Shown: positions 504 to 25,707 of the stretch, piece after piece
Layout of the letters: every line of letters begins with the position of its first letter
How positions within the stretch are numbered: the first letter of the stretch is position 1
Origin: Erysipelotrichaceae bacterium
Lineage (GTDB): Bacteria; Bacillota_I; Bacilli_A; Erysipelotrichales; Erysipelotrichaceae
DNA: 32,000 nucleotides
Reading direction: 5' to 3'
Assembly (NCBI GenBank): GCA_030604855.1
Contig: JAUVVC010000001.1
Location: 180,001 to 212,000, forward strand
The notes under the pieces: generated by a model
Database searches by the model: none
What the model saw: the letters and a program-made list of their open reading frames with translations, nothing else
What the model was told of the DNA's origin: nothing
Translations under genes and position numbers: made by a program

Positions 504-1505
504 TTAAGACTCAGATACTCGTCCTTCTAATATCAACTCCTGCTTATCCGCATCCAGTGTCGCCAACACTCCTATCGGTAAGGTAAGCATCGGATGCGTA
601 TGTGCACAATCAAACTCTGCGAGAATTGGAAATGTGGGTTTACCAATGACTTCCAATAACAACTCATAGGGTCTACGACCTGTACCCATGTCTTTGAACA
701 GTTCATGCTTACCTAAGATCAAACCACCAATGCGATCGAATACACCATTGACTTTGAGATGAGCGAAGTTACGTTCCAATGTCGCAATATCTTTTAGTGA
801 ATCCTCAATGAGCAGGATATCTCCTTGCTTGATTTCAGGCATGTATTCAGAACCCCAGATGCCACCCATGGTATTGAGATTGCCACCGATGAGTCGACCG
901 GTATGATGACCTGAATGTACGGTGATTAATTGGTTTGTTTGTGGAAGTTTACTTCGATCTTGAAGTGACCAATCGATATACTCCTCTGTCCACTCTTTTG
1001 GAGTAGGAAGAGGATAAGGATACTTAATTTGACCCGATACAATCGCTTCAAAACTTGCGAAAGTTTCGTCCACATACGGAGGAAACTCCCCGAATGATGC
1101 GACTAAAGCAGGACCATAATAGGTCACCAAACCTGTTTTCGCATAGATGCCTAAGAGGAGTGCCGTCACATCTGAATACCCTACAAAGATCTTCGGATCT
1201 TTTTTGATGGCTTCATAATCCAAATAGGGAAGAAGTGAATTGGAGTTCATACCACCAATCATCGACATGATGCAGCGTACTTCAGGATCACGAATCAATT
1301 CGTTTAACTCTTCCACACGTTCTTGAATAGAACCAGAGCGATAGAAATCACGTTGTCCTGTTAAAGAGCCTTCCTTGATGATATAGCCCTTGGCTGATAA
1401 ATAAGCCTTGGCACGTTCAAAACGTGCTAGCGCAAAAGCACTGGCAGGTGAAGAAGGGGAATAAACAGCGATGATATCGCCTTTACGTAAGGGTTGTGCG
1501 AACAT
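504..1505 (-). CDS. S66-family LD-carboxypeptidase (LdcA / microcin C7 immunity MccF-like)
   Basis: Motifs GDIIAVYSPSS, RDPEVRCIMSMIGG, VGYSDVTALL (nucleophile Ser) and C-terminal EFDCAHTHP. Start trimmed to MFAQPL (ATG 1505) because GGAG lies 7 nt upstream; the track start at 1538 has no SD. Confidence 0.8.
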   Translation of the reverse strand: MFAQPLRKGDIIAVYSPSSPASAFALARFERAKAYLSAKGYIIKEGSLTGQRDFYRSGSIQERVEELNELIRDPEVRCIMSMIGGMNSNSLLPYLDYEAIKKDPKIFVGYSDVTALLLGIYAKTGLVTYYGPALVASFGEFPPYVDETFASFEAIVSGQIKYPYPLPTPKEWTEEYIDWSLQDRSKLPQTNQLITVHSGHHTGRLIGGNLNTMGGIWGSEYMPEIKQGDILLIEDSLKDIATLERNFAHLKVNGVFDRIGGLILGKHELFKDMGTGRRPYELLLEVIGKPTFPILAEFDCAHTHPMLTLPIGVLATLDADKQELILEGRVSES

Positions 1506-1626
1506 ATATGGTCTCCAGATATTGAATTCATTATACAAGAAAACGTCCTAAATTAAATGTCGCTTCGCAAGCGACCTTTCAATTGTTCCCAGCGATTAAA
1601 CTATGAACATAAAGGAGCAATACATT

Positions 1627-2274
1627 ATGAAAAACAACGCTACAGAATTGGTCTTCATCTTAGACCGCAGTGGATCCATGGCAGGTTTGGAAAGGGATAC
1701 GATTGGTGGTTTCAACGCCATGCTTAAGAAACAACAAGCAATCGAAGGCGAATGCCGCATCACCACCGTCCTCTTTGATAATCAGATAAACATCCTCCAT
1801 GATCGTTTAGACATCCAAGCCATTGGATGTTTAACTGAAAAAGATTACCAAGTGGGAGGTTCCACTGCACTCTTGGATGCGATCGGCTCAACGATAAATA
1901 AGATCGGTAATGTCCAGAAGCACAGTGCTTATGAACATCGTGCATCCAAAGTCCTCTTTGTGATCATCACCGATGGCGAAGAGAACTCCAGTCGAGAATT
2001 CTCGTCTGAACGTGTCAAGAAGATGACTGAGCATCAGATGAAGAAATATAATTGGGAATTCATCTTCTTAGGCGCAAACATCGATGCGGTAGAAACCTCA
2101 AAGATGTATGGTATACGTCCTGATCGTACCCAGAACTATCATGCGGACGCAAAGGGAGTCAACTTGAACTTCGATGTCATGAGCAAGACCGTCGCAAACT
2201 TCCGGATGAGTGCCTGTATTGATGAGGGTTGGAAGGATCAGATCGAGAAGGATTTTGATGAACGGAATAAATGA
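1627..2274 (+). CDS. stand-alone von Willebrand factor type A (vWA) domain protein
   Basis: MIDAS motif LVFILDRSGSM, followed by GGSTALLDA and ITDGEEN. Start trimmed to MKNNATE (ATG 1627), with AAGGAG 9 nt upstream. Confidence 0.8.
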   Translation: MKNNATELVFILDRSGSMAGLERDTIGGFNAMLKKQQAIEGECRITTVLFDNQINILHDRLDIQAIGCLTEKDYQVGGSTALLDAIGSTINKIGNVQKHSAYEHRASKVLFVIITDGEENSSREFSSERVKKMTEHQMKKYNWEFIFLGANIDAVETSKMYGIRPDRTQNYHADAKGVNLNFDVMSKTVANFRMSACIDEGWKDQIEKDFDERNK

Positions 2275-2308
2275 TTTATGGCTTAGATCAATCATTGAAC
2301 TCATTTTG

Positions 2309-2336
2309 AAACACAGCGATAAGCTGTGTTTTTTTG
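2309..2336 (+). terminator. rho-independent terminator after the vWA gene
   Basis: aaacacagc / gctgtgttt stem with a 5-nt loop, followed by a T-run (2330-2335). Confidence 0.7.
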
Positions 2337-2412
2337 AGCCTGCATCAATAAAAAATATTCAGGAAAAACTGAAGTAATAGCGTAAGAAAGAAGGTAAAGT
2401 CATACTAATGGA

Positions 2413-2441
2413 TTGAAAAAATGAGTTGATTATATTACAAT
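2413..2441 (+). promoter_or_regulatory. candidate sigma-A promoter of the higB-higA module
   Basis: TTGAAA (2413-2418), 17-nt spacer, TACAAT (2436-2441). Confidence 0.5.
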
Positions 2442-2444
2442 TAA

Positions 2445-2461
2445 TTTACCTTTGAGGTAAA
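2445..2461 (+). promoter_or_regulatory. inverted repeat TTTACCT-ttg-AGGTAAA between the -10 and the SD (candidate HigA operator)
   Basis: Perfect 7-bp arms at 2445-2451 and 2455-2461. An extra AGGTAAAG half-site occurs about 60 bp upstream (near 2391-2399). Confidence 0.4.
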
Positions 2462-2471
2462 GAGGTGAAAC

Positions 2472-2768
2472 TTGATCATTTGGTACAAATCGAAGAAGCT
2501 TGAAAAAGTATGTACTGATTATGCAAGTGCTCAAAGGGTGCATGGTAAAGATATGGCTCGAATCATCCATATGCGAATCGATCAGATTGCTGCTGCGGAT
2601 TCAGTGGAAAGCTTGGTAAAATATTCAATCGGTCGTTGCCATTCTTTGCAGGGTAATCGAGATGGGGAATATGCCATGGATTTAATTCACCACTATCGAC
2701 TCCTATTTGAAGTTAAGAAAACAGAAATCAATATTGCAAAAATAATGTGTATCGAAGATTATCACTGA
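2472..2768 (+). CDS. higB: HigB-type (plasmid-maintenance killer, RelE/ParE superfamily) toxin
   Basis: 98 aa with a TTG start and SD agaggtga. The sequence ...RCHSLQGNRDGEYAMDLIHHYRLLFEV...CIEDYH matches the HigB/COG3549 pattern LHxLKGDRxGxxS...RxxF...EDYH. The toxin-first gene order is typical of higBA. Confidence 0.75.
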   Translation: MIIWYKSKKLEKVCTDYASAQRVHGKDMARIIHMRIDQIAAADSVESLVKYSIGRCHSLQGNRDGEYAMDLIHHYRLLFEVKKTEINIAKIMCIEDYH

Positions 2769-2794
2769 TATTAATGTGATGAGGAGGTAGAAAG

Positions 2795-3847
2795 GTGCAT
2801 AAAAGCAAGACAACGATTGCGATACCGCCAGGTTCAACGATTCGTGAACAACTCCTTGACCGTGGCATGATGCAAAAAGAATTTGCAGTGAGAATGAATT
2901 TAAGTGAGAAACATATTAGCCGTTTAATCACTGGACAGGTGGAGTTGACGTATGAAGTCGCTTTGAGACTCGAATCCGTTCTCGGTATTCCAGCGCAATT
3001 TTGGAATAATTTGGAAGCAATCTATCGAGAAAAGATTGTACGTATCGAAGAAGAGAATGAAATGACTAAAGAATTGACGTTGGCAAAGCTGTTCCCATAC
3101 AACGAAATGGCTTTGCTTGGTTGGGTTGAGAATTCAAAGAATGGGGTCGATCGTGTTAAAAACTTAAGAAGCTTTTTTGAAGTGGCTCGATTGTCATCCA
3201 TTTCAGAACTTGGAATTCCAGGGATCGCCTATCGAAAAGTTGGAGAAGGGAAGAAAAGTGACTATGCACTTGCGGTTTGGTCACAAAAAGCGCGCATTGA
3301 AGCCCGTAATTATGATACATCATTGATAAATATCAATAAGCTTCATACATTATTACCAAAGATTAGAGCAATGACCTTGAAAGAACCGAAAATATTTAGC
3401 TTTGAGCTGAAAGAACTGTTTTCTGCATGTGGGATCGCTTTGGTTTTCTTACCACATATCAAAGGCTCCTTCCTACATGGAGCGACTTTTGTGGATGGGG
3501 ATCATATCGTTATCGGATTGACACTTCGAGGCAAAACATCCGATAAGTTTTGGTTCAGTCTATTCCATGAGCTGCATCATATCATTAAGGGTGATGTATT
3601 CAAACCCGTAATGGAACTCGGTGACTCAGAACTGGAAGCGGATCGCTTTGCGCGTGATGTTCTGATTCCAATGGATGCCTTTGAACGATTTATAAGCAAG
3701 GGTGTTTTCGATCAAGATACCATATTGGATTTTTCTAAAAAACAAGGAATAGCACCTGGAATCGTAGTTGGTCGCTTACAAAAAGAAAACATCATTCCTT
3801 ACAATGAATTGAATAGTTTAAAGATGGTATACGCTGTAGATGAATGA
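2795..3847 (+). CDS. HigA-type XRE HTH antitoxin domain fused to an ImmA/IrrE (peptidase M78, COG2856) zinc-metallopeptidase domain
   Basis: GTG start with GAGGAGG 7 nt upstream. The N-terminus PPGSTIREQLLDRGMMQKEFAVRMNLSEKHISRLITGQVELTYEVALRLESVLGIPAQFWNNLE is HigA/VapI-like. The C-terminal part has HELHH (nt 3566-3580) followed by SELEADRFARDVLIP, the M78 signature. Confidence 0.75.
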   Translation: MHKSKTTIAIPPGSTIREQLLDRGMMQKEFAVRMNLSEKHISRLITGQVELTYEVALRLESVLGIPAQFWNNLEAIYREKIVRIEEENEMTKELTLAKLFPYNEMALLGWVENSKNGVDRVKNLRSFFEVARLSSISELGIPGIAYRKVGEGKKSDYALAVWSQKARIEARNYDTSLININKLHTLLPKIRAMTLKEPKIFSFELKELFSACGIALVFLPHIKGSFLHGATFVDGDHIVIGLTLRGKTSDKFWFSLFHELHHIIKGDVFKPVMELGDSELEADRFARDVLIPMDAFERFISKGVFDQDTILDFSKKQGIAPGIVVGRLQKENIIPYNELNSLKMVYAVDE

Positions 3848-3855
3848 TGGTTTCC

Positions 3856-3899
3856 AAAGATGTGTGTCCGATAAAACGGACATACATCTTTTATGTTTT
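3856..3899 (+). terminator. strong rho-independent terminator after the higA-M78 gene
   Basis: A 15-bp stem, aaagatgtgtgtccg / cggacatacatcttt (one G-U pair), with loop ataaaa and a T-rich tail. Confidence 0.8.
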
Positions 3900-3936
3900 G
3901 CACATTAGATTAAACTATGCATAAGGGGGAAGTGTT

Positions 3937-4152
3937 ATGCCGATCATCTTATGGTTAGCTTATATGGTGGCATTGTTTTCTGGAGGATTGATCTATGTCT
4001 CCATTTTTGGTGGCGTACTCAGAGCAGAGAGCTTGATCATCGGACTCCTGTTCTTCGTAGGATCATCCTTTGTGATCCATCATTTGAATAAACAGATACC
4101 GGATGGTCAAGATATTGAAGATTTGATCGATCGAACAGAGCCAAGAGAATAA
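3937..4152 (+). CDS. small membrane protein (two predicted TM helices, acidic C-terminal tail), function unknown
   Basis: SD aagggggaag upstream. Hydrophobic stretches IILWLAYMVALFSGGLIYVSIFGGVL and LIIGLLFFVGSSFVI are followed by DGQDIEDLIDRTEPRE. The ORF is flanked by terminators on both sides. Confidence 0.55.
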   Translation: MPIILWLAYMVALFSGGLIYVSIFGGVLRAESLIIGLLFFVGSSFVIHHLNKQIPDGQDIEDLIDRTEPRE

Positions 4153-4161
4153 GCTTACAAG

Positions 4162-4192
4162 AGACTGTGACGTGATGTCGCAGTCTTTTTTA
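4162..4192 (+). terminator. rho-independent terminator
   Basis: A 10-bp stem, agactgtgac / gtcgcagtct, with loop gtgat, followed by TTTTTT. Confidence 0.75.
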
Positions 4193-4222
4193 GGAAGATG
4201 AGTACTTATTACATAACCATTA

Positions 4223-4501
4223 TTGATATCGTATGTGATATTATGGAGGTGTAAGATTAGTAAAAAGAAGAGAAGAGCAGATCGATTATTATCGGAACCA
4301 TTTCGTAGTGATGTTCGCTTCAAAGAAGTTTTTGTAGTACTTAATGATTATGGTTATTTGCTCAAAAGGTCTCGTGGAAATCATTTCATATTTGATCATC
4401 CGCAGCTTCAAAGCATTTGCATTCCAAAGTCAGAGCCTATTAAAGTTGCATACATTCGAATGATTGCTGTAATTCTCAAAAAGGAGGAGGAAGATAGATG
4501 A
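4223..4501 (+). CDS. hicA: HicA-family toxin (mRNA interferase); start codon uncertain
   Basis: ...KKKRRADRLLSEPFRSDVRFKEVFVVLNDYGYLLKRSRGNHFIFDHP... fits the long-N-terminus HicA pattern (LLxxPxxxxFxExxxxLxxxGfxxxxxxGSHxxF). The 3' end overlaps hicB by ATGA. The track start is TTG 4223, but the only good SD (GGAGG 4245-4249) points to ATT at 4256 (see findings). Confidence 0.7.
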   Translation: MISYVILWRCKISKKKRRADRLLSEPFRSDVRFKEVFVVLNDYGYLLKRSRGNHFIFDHPQLQSICIPKSEPIKVAYIRMIAVILKKEEEDR

Positions 4502-4842
4502 GTTATCCGATGCGCTTGTTTACTGTAAAGACTACGAAGGGATTTGAGTGGGTTGCTGAGTTTGTAGATTTCAAAGGATGTGTTGGAGGAGGTGATACTG
4601 CTCAGGAAGCACTTGACGCGGCATTAGTAAATCTTGATGTTTACTTGCAATACCTTAAAGAAAAGGGTGAGGACATTCCTCAACCCTCTGATTATAATGA
4701 ATGCAATGGTAAGATTGCCTTGCGTATACCAAAGTCGATGCATCGTCGTTTGGTAATGAAAGCGGATGAAGAGGGTGTGAGTTTGAATCAACTCTTGGTT
4801 TCTTATCTTGCGGAAATGTTGGGAGCTAAAAGTAAGGATTGA
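4498..4842 (+). CDS. hicB: HicB-family antitoxin
   Basis: The N-terminus FTVKTTKGFEWVAEFVDFKGCVGGGDTAQEAL is a HicB fold. The C-terminus IALRIPKSMHRRLVMKADEEGVSLNQLLVSYLAE is a ribbon-helix-helix-type DNA-binding tail. Translationally coupled to hicA. Confidence 0.8.
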   Translation: MSYPMRLFTVKTTKGFEWVAEFVDFKGCVGGGDTAQEALDAALVNLDVYLQYLKEKGEDIPQPSDYNECNGKIALRIPKSMHRRLVMKADEEGVSLNQLLVSYLAEMLGAKSKD

Positions 4843-5320
4843 TGACTTTCTTCATCCATACGATGTCTCGCCATTGATTGAATTTATAACCTAATTTCTC
4901 GAAATGGGCCACCTGTTCAAAGCCCATTTTTTTATGGAATTCAATACTCAAGTCATTGGGGTAGGTGATGCATGCCAACATGGTTACGATGCCTTGTGTA
5001 CGTAAAGCTTCTTCTAAGGCCGTATAGAGCTGTTTACCATAACCCCGAACTTGGACATCTTGACGGATATAAACACTCGTCTCAACCGTCCAATCGTAGG
5101 CAGAACGTTCTTTGTACTTCGTCGCATAGGCATAGCCTACGATGATATTGTCTACTTCAAGAACGAGGTAAGGGAAACGTTGTTGGATGTTATTTATGCG
5201 TTGTGTGAAATCATTTAACGTCGGAACTTCTGTTTCAAAGGTGATTGTGGTATTCAAGACATAAGGCGTATAAATATCTAAAAGTGCTTGTGCATCATCC
5301 AAAGTAGCTGTCCGTATCAT
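4826..5320 (-). CDS. GNAT-family N-acetyltransferase (phosphinothricin/MSO acetyltransferase-like)
   Basis: MIRTATLDDAQALLDIYTPYV..TFETEVP...VRGYGKQLY... is typical of the PAT/YwnH subgroup. Its 3' end overlaps the hicB 3' end by 17 nt (convergent). Confidence 0.75.
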   Translation of the reverse strand: MIRTATLDDAQALLDIYTPYVLNTTITFETEVPTLNDFTQRINNIQQRFPYLVLEVDNIIVGYAYATKYKERSAYDWTVETSVYIRQDVQVRGYGKQLYTALEEALRTQGIVTMLACITYPNDLSIEFHKKMGFEQVAHFEKLGYKFNQWRDIVWMKKVINPYF

Positions 5321-5943: not shown

Positions 5944-6560
5944 AGCCAGTCTTGATCTTCGACATCGATGGGACACTCCTCGATACCCTCCGATTGAACA
6001 TGGTCACACTCTTGGAACTGGTTCATGAACTGGGCTTCAAGAACGAAGACGGTCATAGCATACTCCGCTTTGCATCTCATCCCGGCATGCAAGTCATGCA
6101 TGAATTTGGGCTTGAGAAGCCTGAAGAAGCCTATGCCCGTTGGGTTCAAAAAGTGCGTGCTTTTCCTGAGCAAGCACAGCCCTATCCAGGCGTGGTGGAA
6201 ATGATTAAAAGCCTCCATGACTCAGGCTATCGACTTGCCATCGTCAGTTCAAAGAGACGCCAACAATACGAGATCGAATTCAAGCGTTTAGCCTTGATCG
6301 ACTATTTTGATGTGGCTGTATTGGCGGATGATTGTGCTAAGCAAAAACCCGATCCAGCTCCTTTGCTTCAGTGTTGCGAACTGTTGGGTGTTGATGTCAA
6401 AGATGCGGTCTATTTTGGTGATTCAATCATGGATCGCTTAGCCGCAGAAGCTTGTGGCATGCCATTCATTGCATGTGTCTGGAAAGGATTTGTGGAAGAA
6501 GGTTTGGAAAATTCTAAGATCATCGAATCACCAGCTGACATCCTCGAAATCTTCAAATAA
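5940..6560 (+). CDS. HAD-superfamily hydrolase (phosphoglycolate phosphatase/PpaX-like)
   Basis: Motif I FDIDGTLLDT, motif II IVSSK, motif III K...YFGDSIMD. Confidence 0.8.
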   Translation: MKPVLIFDIDGTLLDTLRLNMVTLLELVHELGFKNEDGHSILRFASHPGMQVMHEFGLEKPEEAYARWVQKVRAFPEQAQPYPGVVEMIKSLHDSGYRLAIVSSKRRQQYEIEFKRLALIDYFDVAVLADDCAKQKPDPAPLLQCCELLGVDVKDAVYFGDSIMDRLAAEACGMPFIACVWKGFVEEGLENSKIIESPADILEIFK

Positions 6561-6584
6561 AAAGGATTTCATGAATCCTTTTAT
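6559..6584. terminator. bidirectional terminator hairpin between convergent genes
   Basis: aaaggatt / aatccttt stem with a 5-nt loop, with A-run/T-run flanks on both strands. It overlaps both stop codons. Confidence 0.6.
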
Positions 6585-6880
6585 GCGTATTTCGTTAGTC
6601 GATCTTTGATGAACGGTAGGACATTCAACACAATCGTCCCAATGATCAGAATCCTCGATGCGAACACCACCGCATCATTCGTATCCAACAAAGCAATGGT
6701 ATCATTGATTTGGATTAGATGATTCGTATACAGGATCTGAGCATACAAAGCAATCATACAAGCTGTAAGGCTCAAACCACTGTACAAATTTCTTTTTACA
6801 TTGCGCATTAGCAGGATGCTGATTGGCAATCCCCACGCCAATAAACCCATGATAAGACTTAGGATATTCAAGTAAGCCAT
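6581..6880 (-). CDS. small integral membrane protein (three hydrophobic segments), function unknown
   Basis: SD gggggaaaca upstream of ATG 6880. Strongly hydrophobic 99-aa product. Confidence 0.55.
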   Translation of the reverse strand: MAYLNILSLIMGLLAWGLPISILLMRNVKRNLYSGLSLTACMIALYAQILYTNHLIQINDTIALLDTNDAVVFASRILIIGTIVLNVLPFIKDRLTKYA

Positions 6881-9862: not shown

Positions 9863-11170
9863 ATGAAACGTCACTTAAGCTCTGAACTCTTAAAATGGAA
9901 GCATCGTTCGAATCGTAGACCCTTGATTTTACAAGGCGCCCGTCAGGTTGGCAAGACGTACTTGTTGAATGATTTTGGAAGAGAACATTATCAGAATGTA
10001 GCTTATTTCAATTTCGAGAGTCAATCGAGTCTAGTTGATATTTTTAAGTTTGATTTCAATCCTGAGCGGATTATTAAAGCTTTATCTTTTAGTTCAAGAG
10101 TGAGCATCGTGCCGGAATCGACATTGATCATTTTTGATGAAGTTCAGGCGTGTGAGGAAGCTCTAACAAGTTTGAAGTACTTTGCAGAAGATGCTCCAAG
10201 TTATCATATAATCGCTTCAGGTAGTCTTTTGGGTATCGCGGTTAATCGAAAAAAGTTTGCTTTTCCAGTGGGTAAAGTGGATTTAATGACATTGTATCCC
10301 TTAAGCTTTGAGGAGTTTCTTTGGGCTATGCAAGAATTTGAACTGATTGAGCGAATTCAAGCATCCTATAAAACCATGTCGGAAATGGCTGTACCTTATC
10401 ATCAAATCGCTATTGAGAAGTTATTAGAGTATTGGGTGGTTGGAGGGATGCCGGCAGTTGTGAAAACTTATCTAGAAACTCAAGATATGAATTTGGTTCG
10501 TAACGAACAGAACGTTATTTTGAATACATATCTTATGGACATGTCCAAATACAGTTCACCGAGCGAAGTTCGTAAAACCAAAATGATCTATCAACAAATC
10601 AGTTCACAATTGACGAAAGCAAACAAGAAATTTAAGTACAGCTCATTAAAAACCGGTGGTCGACAACGAGAATTCGAAGGATCAATCGAATGGCTAACAA
10701 GTACAGGGATCATGAGTCAAGTGTTTAGAATTGACCAAATCAAGCATCCGTTAAGTATTTATCAGGATGTGGAAAGCTTTAAGGCTTTTACCTCTGATAC
10801 AGGCCTATTATGCGCCATCGCTCAGGTACATCCTGAATTGATTCTGTTTCAAGACCAGAGCATTTCAGACTTCAAGGGTGGTTTGGTTGAAAACTATGTA
10901 GCGAATCAATTCACAAATATGGCGATAAACCATTTCTATTGGACTTCAGAGGGTAGGGCTGAAGTTGATTTCATTATTGAGTATAAAAATAGGATCATTC
11001 CAGTCGAAGTGAAGTCATCTGAAAACGTTCGATCACGAAGTCTATCCATTTATAAAGAACGATTCGAACCAACCCAAATGATTCGATTATCGCTTCGTAA
11101 TTTTGGTCTAGAAGGCAATTTGAAAAGCATCCCGCTTTATGCTGCATTTTGCCTAAAAAAGAGCGATTAA
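9863..11170 (+). CDS. AAA+ ATPase of the AAA_14/DUF4143 (COG1373) type with a C-terminal PD-(D/E)xK-like motif
   Basis: Walker A GARQVGKT (9935-9958); Walker B LIIFDE (D92 at 10136). The C-terminal AEVDF-x11-PVEVKS gives D369/E382/K384 (nt 10967-11014). Confidence 0.8.
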   Translation: MKRHLSSELLKWKHRSNRRPLILQGARQVGKTYLLNDFGREHYQNVAYFNFESQSSLVDIFKFDFNPERIIKALSFSSRVSIVPESTLIIFDEVQACEEALTSLKYFAEDAPSYHIIASGSLLGIAVNRKKFAFPVGKVDLMTLYPLSFEEFLWAMQEFELIERIQASYKTMSEMAVPYHQIAIEKLLEYWVVGGMPAVVKTYLETQDMNLVRNEQNVILNTYLMDMSKYSSPSEVRKTKMIYQQISSQLTKANKKFKYSSLKTGGRQREFEGSIEWLTSTGIMSQVFRIDQIKHPLSIYQDVESFKAFTSDTGLLCAIAQVHPELILFQDQSISDFKGGLVENYVANQFTNMAINHFYWTSEGRAEVDFIIEYKNRIIPVEVKSSENVRSRSLSIYKERFEPTQMIRLSLRNFGLEGNLKSIPLYAAFCLKKSD

Positions 11171-24591: not shown

Positions 24592-25707
24592 ATGAGCCGT
24601 AAGTATTATTTTTCATCCGAGAGTGTCACAGACGGACATCCGGACAAAGTATGTGATCAGATTGCCGATGCGATCCTAGACGAAGCCTTGAAATTGAATC
24701 CCCATGCGAAAATGGCGGTTGAGGCAACCATTAAAGATGGTGTCGTGCTTGTCTATGGTGAGCAGAACCTCGGTCCTGATCTCAAAGATGTGAAGTTGAA
24801 TTATTCTAGAATTGCGAAAGACGTCTTGGCCGATATCGGCTTGGATGAAGATCAGTACAATGTGATCACCTTGGTGGGCGATCAATCTGCGGACATCTTC
24901 AATAAAGTCGTCTTAGGCAATGAAGTCGCAGCAGGTGACCAGGGCATCATGTTTGGTTATGCGTCGAATGAGACGGAGAACTACATGCCATTGGCCATTG
25001 ACACCGCACACAAACTTTCCAAACGTTTATCCGATTTAAAACGTGAAAATAAGCATATCCGTCCGGATGGCAAGACGCAAGTCACGGTTTTGTATGAAAA
25101 TGACAAGCCGGTTGCAATCACCAAAGTCGTTGTCTCAACGCAACACTCCGAAGCCATCAATCTTCAAGATTTGAAAGACTTGATCTTGAGTGAAGTCATC
25201 CATAAGGTCATCGATCCAAAATGGTTGACCCCTGAAACGGAATACATCGTCAATCCAGGCGGACGATTCGTCATCGGCGGTTCGTTTGGAGACAGTGGAA
25301 CCACCGGTCGTAAGATCGTCGTGGATACCTATGGAGGCATGGGACGCATCGGTGGAGGCTGCTTCAGTTCCAAAGATCCTTCCAAAGTCGACCGCAGCGC
25401 AGCGTACTACTGCCGTTATGTCGCAAAGAACATCGTTGCGAACGGCTTGGCCGATCGTTGTGAAATTCAAGTCGCTTATGCGATTGGTCTAACAAAACCA
25501 CTCTCCGTATACATCAATACCTTTGGGACAGAAAAAGTCGACATCGATGCCTTATACGCGATTGTTGAGAAGAACTTTGATTTCTCCGTATCCAACATCA
25601 TCCAAGAATTGGACCTCTTGAATCCAATCTACCGTAAGACAGCGAATTTTGGTCACTTCGGTCGTGATGGCTTCACATGGGAAGTCGTTAAAGAACTCGT
25701 TAAATAG
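24592..25707 (+). CDS. metK: S-adenosylmethionine synthetase
   Basis: ESVTDGHPDKVCDQIADAILD, GDQGIMFGYA, GGGCFSSKDPSKVDRSAAY. Confidence 0.95.
   Translation: MSRKYYFSSESVTDGHPDKVCDQIADAILDEALKLNPHAKMAVEATIKDGVVLVYGEQNLGPDLKDVKLNYSRIAKDVLADIGLDEDQYNVITLVGDQSADIFNKVVLGNEVAAGDQGIMFGYASNETENYMPLAIDTAHKLSKRLSDLKRENKHIRPDGKTQVTVLYENDKPVAITKVVVSTQHSEAINLQDLKDLILSEVIHKVIDPKWLTPETEYIVNPGGRFVIGGSFGDSGTTGRKIVVDTYGGMGRIGGGCFSSKDPSKVDRSAAYYCRYVAKNIVANGLADRCEIQVAYAIGLTKPLSVYINTFGTEKVDIDALYAIVEKNFDFSVSNIIQELDLLNPIYRKTANFGHFGRDGFTWEVVKELVK

Follow-up and report, generated by a model that had tools for sequence, protein, structure and literature searches.

What kind of module is encoded by a small HigB-like gene and a downstream gene whose product appears to join a HigA-type DNA-binding domain to a zinc peptidase, and which of the two partners is the toxin? 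These questions are raised by a locus in the window, the whole 32,000-nucleotide stretch of DNA that was analyzed here, in which a 98-aa ORF is followed after a 26-nt gap (2769–2794) by a 350-aa ORF. With a probability of about 0.6, the two genes form a type II toxin-antitoxin (TA) cassette of the HigB/HigA-HTH-M78 kind that is autonomous and represses itself; it is related to the RosmerTA class, and its counterpart in PD-lambda-2 is the A+B core.

Layout and Boundaries of the Cassette

The features of the cassette are listed in Table 1. An earlier note on this DNA had pointed out the two ORFs and the gap between them, the HELHH motif, a promoter-like site, a perfect inverted repeat and a terminator, all of which are present in the sequence. 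The hairpin at the end of the upstream vWA gene, which was also kept in the near relatives L099 and L100, is the left boundary of the cassette, and the intrinsic terminator after the 350-aa gene is its right boundary. Therefore, transcription of the cassette is bounded on either side. The first gene past the terminator encodes a 71-aa membrane protein. No mobile-element genes were found around the cassette in the window, and no neighbor of the cassette matched a third gene like PD-lambda-2C in PADLOC or Pfam.

Table 1. Coordinates of the cassette and its flanking signals in the window.
Feature	Position	Strand	Details
Lone half-site AGGTAAAG	2392–2399	.	5' of the -35, roughly at the O1 position of most relatives
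Terminator-like hairpin, end of upstream vWA gene	2309–2331, with T-run to 2338	+	AAACACAGC-gataa-GCTGTGTTT; perfect 9-bp inverted repeat, 5-nt loop
Sigma-70-type promoter	2413–2441	+	-35 TTGAAA 2413–2418, 17-nt spacer, -10 TACAAT 2436–2441; pattern scan, 10/12 matches
Operator O2	2443–2462	.	Palindrome AATTTACCT-TTG-AGGTAAAG; perfect 7+7 core TTTACCT-TTG-AGGTAAA at 2445–2461
HigB-type toxin gene, 98 aa	2472–2768	+	TTG start; RBS AGAGGTG at 2461–2467; ends ...IEDYH
Gene for HigA-HTH/middle region/M78 fusion, 350 aa	2795–3847	+	GTG start; RBS GAGGAGG at 2781–2787
HigA-type Xre HTH domain, residues 9–78	2819–3028	+	TIGR02607, HTH_3
Helical middle region, family-specific, residues 81–200	3035–3394	+	Near-invariant loop I144-A-Y-R147-K148 at 3224–3238
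M78 (ImmA/IrrE, COG2856) zinc-peptidase domain, residues ~200–335	3392–3799	+	HELHH at 3566–3580 (residues 258–262)
Intrinsic terminator after 350-aa gene	3856–3901, stem 3856–3891	+	15-bp stem, 6-nt loop, T-run; terminator scan and inverted-repeat search

The 98-aa HigB-Type Protein

The 98-aa protein scored 19.6 bits (E = 1.3e-3) with the Pfam model PF05015, which is under the cut-off of 27. Among 25 toxins of the clade, 13 matched PF05015 at E ≤ 0.01, and the best E value was 2.1e-4. In addition, a toxin encoded on a Deinococcus plasmid was 35% identical to the 98-aa protein (E = 3e-19) and itself scored 32.5 bits, above the PF05015 cut-off, which links the 98-aa protein to the family transitively. 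The toxin family profile matched HigB chains at E = 5.7e-4, and PHROG 3066, annotated as "toxin of TA system," matched the 98-aa protein at E = 5e-12. No PADLOC model matched it at E ≤ 0.1, hence neither PD-Lambda-2_A nor any RmrT.

The AlphaFold2 model of the 98-aa protein had a pLDDT of 93.8. When this model was searched with Foldseek, the top TM-scores were those of P. vulgaris HigB chains (TM 0.74–0.77, rmsd 2.4–2.9 Å, 21–26% identity), of which structure 4mct was the best (TM 0.77, rmsd 2.5 Å). In the profile alignment, H57 was placed on H54 of HigB, and D96, Y97, and H98 were placed on D90, Y91, and H92, respectively. Each of these four HigB residues is essential for the toxicity of P. 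vulgaris HigB (PMC5027501). Among the relatives of the 98-aa protein, H57 was invariant and the C-terminal DYH was found in 77/81 and 68/71 sequences. The assignment to a HigB-type RelE fold made in the earlier note was borne out by the fold and the catalytic residues, though the PF05015 score is under the cut-off. It is strongly supported by these comparisons that the 98-aa protein belongs to the HigB family of RelE-fold proteins and has the full predicted catalytic set of a ribosome-dependent mRNA endonuclease, for which activity it is a candidate. Finally, the TTG start codon of the toxin gene was shared by 48 of 58 relatives, and ATG was the start codon of the partner gene in 54 of the 58.

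The 350-aa Fusion Protein

Homologs of the 350-aa protein formed more than 3300 clusters, and the best 120 were all 342–358 aa in length. Its AlphaFold2 model had a pLDDT of 85.9. It is labeled "transcriptional regulator" by PHROG, and is predicted here to be antitoxin, autorepressor, and protease in one polypeptide.

At its N-terminal part, the HTH domain scored 46.0 bits with TIGR02607, just under the cut-off of 47.7, and matched HTH_3 at E = 5.7e-8. The HTH profile also matched the solved HigA structures 2icp (E = 2.8e-10) and 4mcx (E = 6.3e-9), and the Foldseek comparison with HigA gave a target-normalized TM of ~0.8 and an rmsd of 0.8–1.8 Å. The HigA-type nature of the domain, as it had been proposed before, agrees with these matches, and the domain is probably the DNA-binding and toxin-neutralizing part of the protein.

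At its C-terminal part, the protein scored 16.4 bits (E = 8e-3) with PF06114, under the cut-off of 22, but 33 of 37 clade relatives matched this model at E ≤ 0.01 (best 1.2e-8), and the Deinococcus relative scored 32.9 bits. Similarly, Foldseek matched the domain with CapP (7t5t, E = 1.3e-3), PprI (8sln), and IrrE (3dti), and the PADLOC capP and RmrA models matched residues 201–342. The proposed ImmA/IrrE M78 domain was therefore recovered at the level of the family. H258, E259, H262, and E279 were invariant in 37 sequences, and HExxH together with ExxA[DN] was found in 80/80 relatives of ~55–60% overall identity. The protease core was the most conserved block of the whole protein, with a column identity of 0.91–0.95 in residues 241–260. 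Residues 279–292 read ELEADRFARDVLIP, in which E279 (3629–3631), part of an ExxADxFA motif, is predicted to be the third zinc ligand, with the motif of H258, E259, and H262. For comparison, the active site of IrrE consists of residues 82, 83, 86, and 113 (PMC6868357). An M78 domain with an intact predicted metal site is strongly supported by this conservation.

Between the two domains lies a helical region that is specific to the family. An exhaustive search with this region, which gave 293 representatives at E ≤ 1e-3, found it at the same position in proteins of ~340–375 aa only, plus shorter fragment-like matches. Its loop was highly conserved: among 81 sequences, R147 was invariant, and I144 and A145 were kept in 79 and 77, respectively. 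Residues 142–145 were also the sole segment of the model with a pLDDT of <50. The middle region is a candidate hinge, cleavage site, or sensor.

Promoter and Operators

The bare promoter pattern was not above chance, as the scan found 4 sites vs. 6.2 expected in shuffled sequences. In related loci, TTGACA-17-TATAAT was found at the same position relative to the operators, between both copies, and both the -35 and the -10 hexamers were kept in diverged near relatives.

The palindrome O2 is located immediately 3' of the -10 and covers the expected transcription start. It is a zero-mismatch match to TTTACCTNNNAGGTAAA, and no other zero-mismatch match was found in the 32-kb window; at ≤2 mismatches, the matches were O2 and one weak site. 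Of 61 related loci, counted without redundancy, 60 had the palindrome AATTTACCTnnnAGGTAAATT 5' of the toxin gene, with its center ~30 nt ahead of the start codon. It was also strongly enriched there, with 110 sites in ~10 kb of upstream regions vs. 21 sites in 363 kb of flanking DNA. A 7-bp repeat alone could be a chance occurrence, yet the repeat at 2445–2461 is real, because it is the promoter-proximal copy of the operator that is conserved in the whole family. Moreover, the O2 palindrome was invariant in L096 and L097 though the remaining intergenic sequence had diverged. The suggestion that the repeat at the transcription start is a functional element was supported by its conservation. O2 is predicted to be the binding site of the HigA-type HTH, and the TTTACCTnnnAGGTAAA palindrome is a candidate target of the 350-aa protein or of its first 90 residues.

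In 50 of the 61 related loci, two operators 55–59 bp apart surrounded the -35/-10. The lineage of the window has a single operator copy only, which weighs against the main explanation. The lone half-site upstream of its -35, a degenerate O1, was not kept in L096 or L097 and is probably without function.

Pairing, Distribution and Genomic Context

When loci were collected with the large gene as a seed, a HigB-like ORF was found directly 5' of it in 81/86 loci; when the toxin was the seed, a full-length large gene was found 3' of it in 98/102 loci. The 52 same-strand ORFs downstream of the pair fell into 44 unrelated clusters, and no conserved third gene was found across 82 related loci. It is strongly supported by these gene neighborhoods that the two genes travel as a pair without a conserved third gene. 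The view of the earlier note that the cassette is autonomous was supported.

The clade was found in at least 588 bacterial species as well as in phages, including gut phages, and plasmids. The cassette was carried by 32 IMG/VR contigs and by plasmids of many phyla, and phage-borne cassettes had the terminase gene on one side and the portal gene on the other. In the lineage of the window, the cassette lay among ordinary genes of the chromosome, with conserved synteny and vertical inheritance. Some relatives adjoined genes of AbiE, PDC-S11, and type III RM, and others adjoined RM, DUF262, and Schlafen genes. These neighbors and the carriage by mobile elements speak for the main explanation, whereas the anecdotal nature of the defence-island context and the vertical inheritance in the window's lineage speak against it. 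In RefSeq, such pairs are routinely labeled "RelE/ParE family toxin" and "HigA family addiction module antitoxin."

Polarity of the Pair

Overexpression of the large protein of PD-lambda-2 on its own was toxic, and rescue came from the HigB-like protein (PMC9519451). The polarity of the pair can therefore not be assumed beforehand. In the related loci, the toxin gene was deleted or truncated while the large gene was intact in 5/86 cases, and one or both operators were intact in 3 of these 5. An intact toxin gene without at least the HTH domain of its partner was found in 0/102 loci. This contrast has a Fisher p of 0.019, which rises to 0.09 if the frameshifted locus L150 is counted as a toxin without antitoxin; the argument is statistical and is drawn largely from metagenome assemblies. 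Furthermore, in the phage contigs L194 and L195 the toxin is intact and its partner consists of the HTH only (92 or 107 aa). This pattern of gene loss suggests that HigB is the toxin in the two-gene clade, opposite to the polarity reported for PD-lambda-2. The comparative evidence hence favors for the clade the polarity that had been assumed at the outset, despite the PD-lambda-2 result.

Comparison with Known Systems

PD-lambda-2 of E. coli ECOR42, which consists of the genes A, B, and C, is a validated abortive-infection system (Vassallo 2022; PMC9519451). Its A and B genes share with the window a HigB-like small protein that comes first and, after it, a HigA-type HTH with a C-terminal ImmA/IrrE (M78) peptidase. 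The PADLOC model PD-Lambda-2_B matched the 350-aa protein at E = 6.8e-34 (115.8 bits), with residues 14–332 aligned to positions 62–377 of the 402-position model, the middle region included. Four differences were found, however. Firstly, PD-lambda-2 has the third gene C, whose product, a Beta_protein of ~360 aa (PF14350), is required for defence (PMC9519451); the window cassette is without it and is not a full member of the system, as neither the A nor the C model was matched. Secondly, PD-lambda-2A belongs to PF09907, whereas the best Pfam family of the window toxin is PF05015, the type of P. vulgaris HigB. Thirdly, the PD-Lambda-2_B model implies an N-terminal extension of ~50 aa, which the window protein lacks, its match beginning at model position 62. 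Finally, the polarity observed on overexpression of PD-lambda-2 is opposite to that of HigB as the toxin, which is indicated by the comparative data here. As the only tested relative, PD-lambda-2 with its reversed polarity and its need for a third gene runs contrary to the main explanation.

Similar to canonical HigBA (P. vulgaris Rts1), the cassette has a toxin-first operon, the toxin fold, the H/D-Y-H catalytic residues, a HigA-like HTH, and palindromic operators around the -35/-10, of which most clade members have two. Different from canonical HigBA, the toxin is too diverged to clear the Pfam cut-off, and the antitoxin is 350 aa long, its HTH being followed by a middle region and an M78 peptidase that looks active, while canonical HigA is ~100 aa. 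That the window proteins fall under the curated cut-offs of PF05015, TIGR02607, and PF06114 is a further point contrary to the main explanation.

In RosmerTA (RmrT/RmrA; Millman 2022) and the NetFlax D25 ImmA-protease hub, Xre-HTH + M78 proteins are found with a toxin, and these modules are often phage-borne and defence-associated (PMC10440598). The same architecture, an Xre-HTH + M78 protein adjoining a toxin, was found in the window, so that the analogy drawn in the earlier note is supported as a likeness to the class, not as membership. Thirteen RmrA models matched the 350-aa protein, but weakly (E = 4.6e-8 to 1.2e-2) and over residues 13–72 or ~237–342 alone, and the middle region is not common to RmrA. 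Moreover, RmrT of Gordonia phage Kita is a membrane-depolarising protein and not a RelE-fold RNase (PMC10440598).

ImmA/ImmR, IrrE/DdrO, and CapP/CapH also couple an M78 peptidase (HExxH...E) functionally to an Xre HTH repressor, and M78 peptidases cut their Xre partner at a loop C-terminal to the HTH (PMC6868357). In those systems, however, the two are separate proteins and the output is a regulon, a mobile element, or CBASS, whereas the window has protease and HTH in one polypeptide and a co-transcribed predicted RNase toxin as the output.

The earlier note had not recognized this combination as a characterized system. Fused Xre-COG2856 genes in operons with RelE/PIN toxins were nevertheless described by Makarova, Wolf, and Koonin (2009), who found them abundant in Firmicutes, phages, and plasmids (PMC2701414). 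This predicted class is exactly the arrangement in the window, though it was set by gene neighborhood only, with no operator, clade definition, or polarity evidence; HigB with a HigA-HTH-peptidase is, in addition, the A+B core of PD-lambda-2 (PMC9519451). The PADLOC search that the note had proposed was positive for PD-Lambda-2_B, far better than for the RmrA models, and negative for PD-Lambda-2_A and C. The note had also allowed that the pair might already be catalogued as a RosmerTA or HigBA subtype, which comes close to the result in view of the PD-Lambda-2_B match, full membership not being found. The window cassette is thus a distinct two-gene variant of an already described kind and not a new system. 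What is new here is the extent of the clade in species, phages, and plasmids, the conserved operator AATTTACCTnnnAGGTAAATT, the usual TTG start of the toxin, and the pattern of toxin loss.

Alternative Explanations

The pair may be an ordinary higBA addiction or stabilization module without a role in phage defence, in which the M78 domain would tune antitoxin turnover or autoregulation, e.g., upon DNA damage, and the module would stabilize prophages, plasmids, or chromosomal islets. The frequent carriage by plasmids, prophages, and phages, the stable synteny in the window's lineage, and the classical autoregulated TA architecture are all consistent with this explanation, as is the response of characterized M78/Xre pairs to DNA damage or stress (PMC6868357). 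However, abortive-infection defence is the function of the closest relative that has been tested, some relatives adjoin AbiE, RM, and other defence genes, and the HTH + M78 antitoxin class (RosmerTA) was repeatedly positive in defence tests (PMC10440598). This explanation is considered unlikely but well worth keeping in mind, and addiction and defence roles are not mutually exclusive. Quite unlikely is the reverse polarity as in PD-lambda-2, by which the 350-aa protein would inhibit growth through uncontrolled proteolysis or mis-repression and the HigB-like protein would be its inhibitor or antitoxin, or the two would restrain each other. PD-lambda-2B, whose model matches the 350-aa protein so well, was toxic alone and was rescued by PD-lambda-2A (PMC9519451), and the strictly conserved protease site would imply an active enzyme in need of restraint. 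Nevertheless, the PD-lambda-2 result came from overexpression, and PD-lambda-2A is from another Pfam family. Were the large protein lethal alone, the 5 loci that retain it intact after loss of the small gene should be inviable. In addition, four RNase catalytic residues, which would be superfluous for an inhibitor, were kept clade-wide in the small protein, its gene has a weak TTG start, and an intact small gene can occur beside a partner that consists of the HTH only.

Two further explanations concern the large protein itself. As a regulatory role is known for fusions of Xre with COG2856 (IrrE; ImmA/ImmR) and PHROG calls the large protein a transcriptional regulator, the locus might be an ImmR/ImmA- or IrrE/DdrO-like switch that mainly controls other genes or a mobile element, with the small ORF as an accessory. 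Apart from one weak site, however, the only operator in the window at ≤2 mismatches is in the cassette's own promoter, no mobile-element genes surround the cassette there, and the two genes move as a unit, with unrelated surroundings and no neighbor that is conserved, all of which makes such a switch very unlikely. It is extremely unlikely that the M78 domain at the C-terminus has lost its catalytic activity and is a relic that serves for dimerization only, in a plain higBA pair with a bulky antitoxin. The score under the PF06114 cut-off and the existence of natural HTH-only versions would fit a relic, but the invariance of H258, E259, H262, and E279 in 80/80 relatives and the position of the protease core as the most conserved block speak against it.

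Proposed Mechanism

Under the main explanation, a two-gene TA cassette with HigB as the toxin, the HTH of the 350-aa protein would bind the palindrome and repress the operon, its N-terminal HigA domain would neutralize the HigB toxin, and the weak TTG start would hold toxin output under antitoxin output. By analogy with ImmA/ImmR, IrrE/DdrO, and CapP/CapH, the M78 domain would be the trigger-responsive part. A signal, e.g., a phage product or DNA damage, may then lead to proteolysis of the HTH-linked loop, in cis or between subunits. Cleavage of the loop would abolish repression and neutralization and free HigB to stop translation, and the end result would be abortive infection or the stabilization of the carrying element.

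In a more specific form, which is put forward tentatively and is considered unlikely, the two-gene clade would be a self-contained switch in which the antitoxin cleaves itself as LexA does. A cue from a phage or from DNA damage would cause the M78 domain to cut its own or a neighboring subunit in the motif I144-A-(C/Y/F)-R147-(R/K), directly before R147. A single cut would detach the HTH from the scaffold, derepress the operon, and free HigB, with no third sensor gene and with a polarity opposite to that of PD-lambda-2. In having Arg after a hydrophobic residue, the I144-R147 loop is similar to the site between L106 and R107 of DdrO.

HTH + M78 antitoxins, as in RosmerTA, PD-lambda-2, and the NetFlax ImmA hub, constitute a large class of defence-associated modules, and the two-gene clade is a minimal and very abundant model of how they are triggered. 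In this clade, the chemistry of the toxin (HigB) is known, the operator sequence is defined, and the protease site is strictly conserved and comes with a loop that may be regulatory. The substrate of the protease, the activating signal, and the true toxin partner, on whose identity the comparative evidence and the PD-lambda-2 overexpression result point opposite ways, are made directly testable by the clade. As the A and C models do not match, the variant with two genes would escape current defence finders. With regard to annotation, proteins of 350–370 aa that are labeled "HigA family antitoxin" are protease fusions.

Identification of the HigB-like and HTH-M78 proteins

The 98-aa protein scored 19.6 bits against PF05015 (HigB-like), which is below the Pfam cut-off of 27, and no match was found for it in PADLOC or NCBIfam. 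A profile built from 25 of its relatives matched the chains of P. vulgaris HigB with an E-value of 5.7e-4, and the alignment extended up to the C-terminus. Its AlphaFold2 model (pLDDT 93.8) also gave the highest TM-scores with P. vulgaris HigB (TM 0.77, rmsd 2.5 Å). H57, D96, Y97 and H98 of the 98-aa protein aligned with H54, D90, Y91 and H92 of HigB, respectively, and HigB loses its toxicity when any of the four is mutated singly (PMC5027501). Among the relatives, H57 was invariant and the C-terminal DYH was retained in 77 of 81 and in 68 of 71. Moreover, PHROG 3066 ("toxin of TA system") covered the 98-aa protein end to end, and the toxin of a Deinococcus plasmid that scored above the PF05015 cut-off was 35% identical to it. 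From these comparisons, we conclude that the 98-aa protein is a diverged member of the HigB family with intact catalytic residues.

Residues 9–78 of the 350-aa protein are a HigA-type HTH, whose score against TIGR02607 was 46.0 bits (cut-off 47.7). The large-protein profile matched solved HigA structures with an E-value of 2.8e-10, and Foldseek comparison of the HTH with HigA gave target-normalized TM-scores of about 0.8 with rmsd values of 0.8–1.8 Å. The C-terminal part, about residues 200–335, is an M78 peptidase domain. PF06114 scored 16.4 bits on the window protein, below its cut-off of 22, and matched 33 of 37 relatives. H258, E259, H262 and E279, the latter in the ExxADxFA motif, were invariant in 37 aligned sequences, HExxH and ExxA[DN] motifs were found in all of the 80 relatives, and a fold search with the large protein returned CapP, PprI and IrrE. 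In between, residues 81–200 are helical. When 1.84 billion representatives were searched exhaustively with this middle region, all matches besides fragment-like shorter hits were in proteins of ~340–375 aa and at the position that the region has here, so it is specific to the HTH-M78 architecture. In the whole model, pLDDT drops below 50 solely at residues 142–145, which lie inside this region and overlap its most conserved motif, I144-A-(C/Y/F)-R147-(R/K), of which R147 was invariant in 81 sequences.

The profile, fold and conserved-residue evidence thus agrees with the domains named in the earlier note (HigB, HigA HTH and M78), and the ORFs, the 26-nt gap between them, HELHH, the promoter, the repeat and the terminator were all confirmed as that note had described them.

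Features of the window and of related loci (L numbers)
Locus	Feature	Position	Strand	Remarks
Window	Second terminator-like hairpin	2309-2331		closes upstream vWA gene
Window	Sigma-70-like promoter site, TTGAAA-17-TACAAT	2413-2441		
Window	Perfect inverted repeat, TTTACCT-TTG-AGGTAAA	2445-2461		
Window	HigB-like ORF, 98 aa	2472-2768	+	TTG start; RBS AGAGGTG 2461-2467
Window	HTH-M78 fusion ORF, 350 aa	2795-3847	+	GTG start; RBS GAGGAGG 2781-2787
Window	HELHH motif	3566-3580	+	residues 258-262 of 350-aa protein
Window	ELEADRFARDVLIP motif			residues 279-292 of 350-aa protein, downstream of HELHH
Window	Terminator, 15-bp stem	3856-3891		3' of cassette
Window	71-aa predicted membrane protein	3937-4152	+	directly 3' of cassette terminator
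Window	HicA-like ORF	4223-4501	+	PF07927 E 4e-4, below cut-off; true start probably later
Window	HicB-family ORF	4498-4842	+	PF05534 E 5.5e-12; overlaps HicA-like ORF
Window	GNAT acetyltransferase	4826-5320	-	convergent; overlaps end of HicB-family ORF
Window	AAA_14/DUF4143 ATPase	9863-11170	+	
Window	Lipoprotein intramolecular transacylase (Lit)-TraX domain fusion	19845-21221	+	
Window	SAM riboswitch RF00162	24436-24526	+	44.7 bits, just above gathering score
Window	S-adenosylmethionine synthetase gene	24592-25707		downstream of SAM riboswitch
L022	Toxin-loss locus	3848-4000		orphan repressor-protease gene
L091	Toxin-loss locus	2020-2240		orphan repressor-protease gene
L024, L062, L077	Toxin-loss loci			orphan repressor-protease genes
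L194	HTH-only variant	3995-4588		middle region and protease absent
L195	HTH-only variant	3947-4642		middle region and protease absent
L009	161-aa protein	4108-4593		Achromobacter phage CF418P1
L093	161-aa protein	3596-4081		Paraburkholderia plasmid
L010	462-aa gene	3580-4968		Deinococcus radiophilus plasmid pRadio3
L095	360-aa relative	2371-3453		E. coli PCN033
L011	360-aa relative	2459-3541		Pantoea plasmid
L096	71-aa ORF, syntenic relative	4071-4286		
L097	71-aa ORF, syntenic relative	6457-6672		
L101	71-aa ORF, syntenic relative	1544-1759		
L097	Variable upstream defense/TA gene	1769-2776		
L098	Variable upstream defense/TA gene	1968-2975		
L099	Variable upstream defense/TA gene	1430-1879		

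Relationship to known systems

The PADLOC model PD-Lambda-2_B matched residues 14–332 of the large protein with an E-value of 6.8e-34, whereas the models of RmrA, the antitoxin of RosmerTA, matched the HTH alone or the protease part alone with E-values of 5e-8 or worse. The large protein is not a member of the RmrA models. PD-lambda-2 of E. coli is an abortive infection system that consists of a HigB-like protein, a HigA-like HTH-peptidase fusion and a third gene required for defense (Vassallo et al., 2022). Its supplement assigns A to PF09907 (HigB_toxin), B to HTH plus Peptidase_M78 and C to PF14350 (Beta_protein). The window shares the pairing of HigB with HTH-M78, but no match to PD-Lambda-2_C or Beta_protein was found near the cassette. 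Given that neither the A nor the C model matched, the window does not hold a full PD-lambda-2 member. The fused Xre-COG2856 genes, which often share an operon with a RelE or PIN toxin, were also proposed to form a more complex TA circuit (Makarova et al., 2009), and in the NetFlax analysis an ImmA-protease protein is the hub antitoxin of the Rosmer zone (PMC10440598). Plasmid copies are labeled in RefSeq as "RelE/ParE family toxin" and "HigA family addiction module antitoxin" of 360–373 aa. The cassette is a two-gene variant of the known PD-lambda-2 kind within a very large clade. The earlier note had recognized this kind of system correctly; its suggestion that the combination was uncatalogued does not stand, given the PD-Lambda-2_B match and the precedent of Makarova et al. 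(2009).

Distribution and two-gene organization

More than 3300 clusters at 90% identity were homologous to the large protein, the best 120 of which were 342–358 aa in length and 55–95% identical to it. When a single genome per species was scanned, relatives were found in at least 588 species, mostly of Bacillota with some of Bacteroidota, Spirochaetota and Veillonellaceae, and the closest was in an Erysipelotrichaceae MAG (68%). Copies were also found in 32 IMG/VR contigs, between the terminase and portal genes of gut phages, on plasmids from many phyla and, alongside integrase and holin genes, in prophage-like settings. The HigB-like ORF was directly 5' of the large gene in 81 of 86 large-gene-seeded loci, and a full-length large gene was 3' of the toxin gene in 98 of 102 toxin-seeded loci. 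The 52 same-strand ORFs downstream of the cassettes fell into 44 unrelated clusters, so a third component is not conserved in this clade.

Several loci differ in their neighbors. In a betaproteobacterial phage and a betaproteobacterial plasmid, the large gene is followed by a conserved 161-aa protein (66% identity between the two), which had no Pfam or PADLOC match and is possibly a different third component. The large-protein relatives of these two loci scored higher against PD-Lambda-2_B (E 4e-49), and no Pfam match was found for the small proteins upstream. On the Deinococcus plasmid pRadio3, the HigB-like/HigA-M78 pair is overlapped downstream by a gene whose 462-aa product is of the Schlafen AlbA_2/HATPase_c_4/Fic-like_C type. 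With a type I RM S subunit and a DUF262 protein as neighbors, this is possibly another three-gene arrangement in a defense context. Finally, 235 of 5426 complete E. coli genomes possess a related 360-aa HTH-M78-like "XRE family transcriptional regulator". This locus, reached via a Pantoea homolog, was considered as PD-lambda-2 and rejected, as no annotated HigB gene was found upstream and its neighbors are different: the gene is convergent with a 314-aa hypothetical gene, thymidylate synthase comes next, and a MazG-like gene is nearby. Its context is different and apparently undescribed.

Operator, promoter and start codons

As bare patterns, neither the promoter hexamers (4 sites vs. 6.2 expected) nor the 7-bp repeat occurred above chance in the window; their significance comes from related loci. 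Alignment of the upstream regions revealed a palindrome, AATTTACCT-nnn-AGGTAAATT, which is shared by 60 of 61 non-redundant loci. The proximal copy is centered ~30 nt before the toxin start codon, just past the -10, and in 50 of the 61 loci a second copy is found 55–59 bp further upstream, just before the -35. The palindrome occurred 110 times in ~10 kb of upstream regions vs. 21 times in 363 kb of flanking DNA. The inverted repeat that had been noticed at the transcription start of the cassette is the window copy of this palindrome, a perfect promoter-proximal copy and the sole zero-mismatch site in the 32 kb. In near relatives with a diverged intergenic region, the proximal palindrome and the -35/-10 were invariant. 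A second operator in the window was rejected, as the candidate is a degenerate half-site that is not conserved in the lineage. The conserved layout of palindrome and promoter, together with an HTH recognition region that is almost invariant among relatives, is strong comparative evidence for a predicted operator autorepression similar to that of canonical higBA.

In the leader RNA (2445–2469), base pairing is also possible between UUUACCUUU, the left operator arm, and AGAGGUGAA, the Shine-Dalgarno region of the toxin gene, at -8.5 kcal/mol (z = -2.1; 9 of 200 shuffles fold at least as well). This pairing is probably incidental. A role at the RNA level was set aside in favor of a DNA operator, since transcription probably begins within the left arm and the second copy upstream of the -35 is conserved.

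The toxin start codon was TTG in 48 of 58 loci, while the large gene started with ATG in 54 of 58 and with GTG in the window. This bias is consistent with a toxin output held below that of its partner.

Assignment of toxin and antitoxin

As a TA pair decays, the toxin is expected to be lost and the antitoxin to be kept. The small gene was missing or survived only as a C-terminal remnant in 5 of 86 loci (L022, L024, L062, L077 and L091), all with an intact large gene. L022 and L091 retained both operators and L077 a single one, and none was found upstream of the large gene in L024 and L062. Conversely, none of the 102 toxin-seeded loci had an intact toxin gene without at least an HTH downstream (0/102 vs. 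5/86, Fisher's test, p = 0.019). The large gene was frameshifted in 2 of the 102, possibly by assembly errors, and p is 0.09 if one such case is counted against the model. On two IMG/VR phage contigs, L194 and L195, the intact toxin gene is followed by an HTH-only partner of 92 and 107 aa, respectively, the size of a canonical HigA; by sequence, the fusion system has here given rise to natural versions of a "canonical HigBA". That the toxin persists beside an HTH-only partner points to the N-terminal HigA domain as the probable neutralizing part.

The large protein might instead be the toxin, as PD-lambda-2 suggests: B alone was, "Unexpectedly", toxic and was rescued by A (Vassallo et al., 2022). 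The comparative record of this clade, in which five loci lost the small gene beside an intact large gene and none of the 102 had an intact toxin gene without at least an HTH behind it, runs against this assignment. The conserved RNase catalytic residues, the toxin-loss asymmetry and the HTH-only partners, from genomes of which many are MAGs, favor HigB as the probable toxin. The fusion would then act as both antitoxin and repressor, with the protease adding a layer of regulation.

Proposed mechanism

In the resting state, a complex of HigB and the fusion would occupy the operator or operators, such that the operon is repressed and HigB is held inactive on the HigA domain. M78 peptidases of the IrrE/DdrO and ImmA/ImmR pairs cut their partner in a loop downstream of the HTH, at L106|R107 of DdrO and F95|M96 of ImmR (PMC6868357). 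By analogy with these pairs and CapP/CapH, a phage or damage cue might trigger proteolysis within the fusion or between subunits. A speculative candidate for the cleavage site is the I-A-(C/Y/F)-R-(R/K) loop, which is conserved and flexible. Cleavage would relieve both repression and neutralization, and HigB would then cut ribosome-bound mRNA. No mechanism for PD-lambda-2 was found in the literature searched. Relative to this literature, the following details are new and make the mechanism readily testable: the conservation of the operator, the bias in start codons, the asymmetric decay and the HTH-only variants.

Genomic context

The window is ordinary low-GC Firmicute chromosomal DNA and also encodes ProRS, MetK behind a SAM riboswitch and ABC transporters. 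The GC content of the cassette (0.38–0.40) is slightly below that of its surroundings. LD-carboxypeptidase and vWA protein genes are upstream, and a 71-aa membrane protein and a HicA/HicB pair are downstream. Exact-sequence searches with the vWA and 350-aa proteins of the window gave no match. The window synteny was retained in relatives whose toxins were 78–90% identical. Upstream of the block of S66 LD-carboxypeptidase, vWA protein and cassette, however, close relatives differ, with Abi_2 and a Macro-domain protein in one and PemK in another, which suggests that this chromosomal site is a small variable islet prone to TA and defense genes.

The 71-aa membrane gene was rejected as a lineage-specific third component, because it lies past the terminator, is kept only in syntenic close relatives in which all neighbors are conserved, and had no match in Pfam, PADLOC or PHROGs. 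An ORF of equal length was called at the corresponding position in the syntenic relatives L096, L097 and L101. The gene was absent from the wider clade, and its product is probably unrelated to the cassette. The TA-like HicA/HicB pair (4223–4842, +) adjoins the cassette. Farther away, the window contains a Lit-TraX fusion and an AAA_14/DUF4143 ATPase, a family common in mobile or defense contexts.
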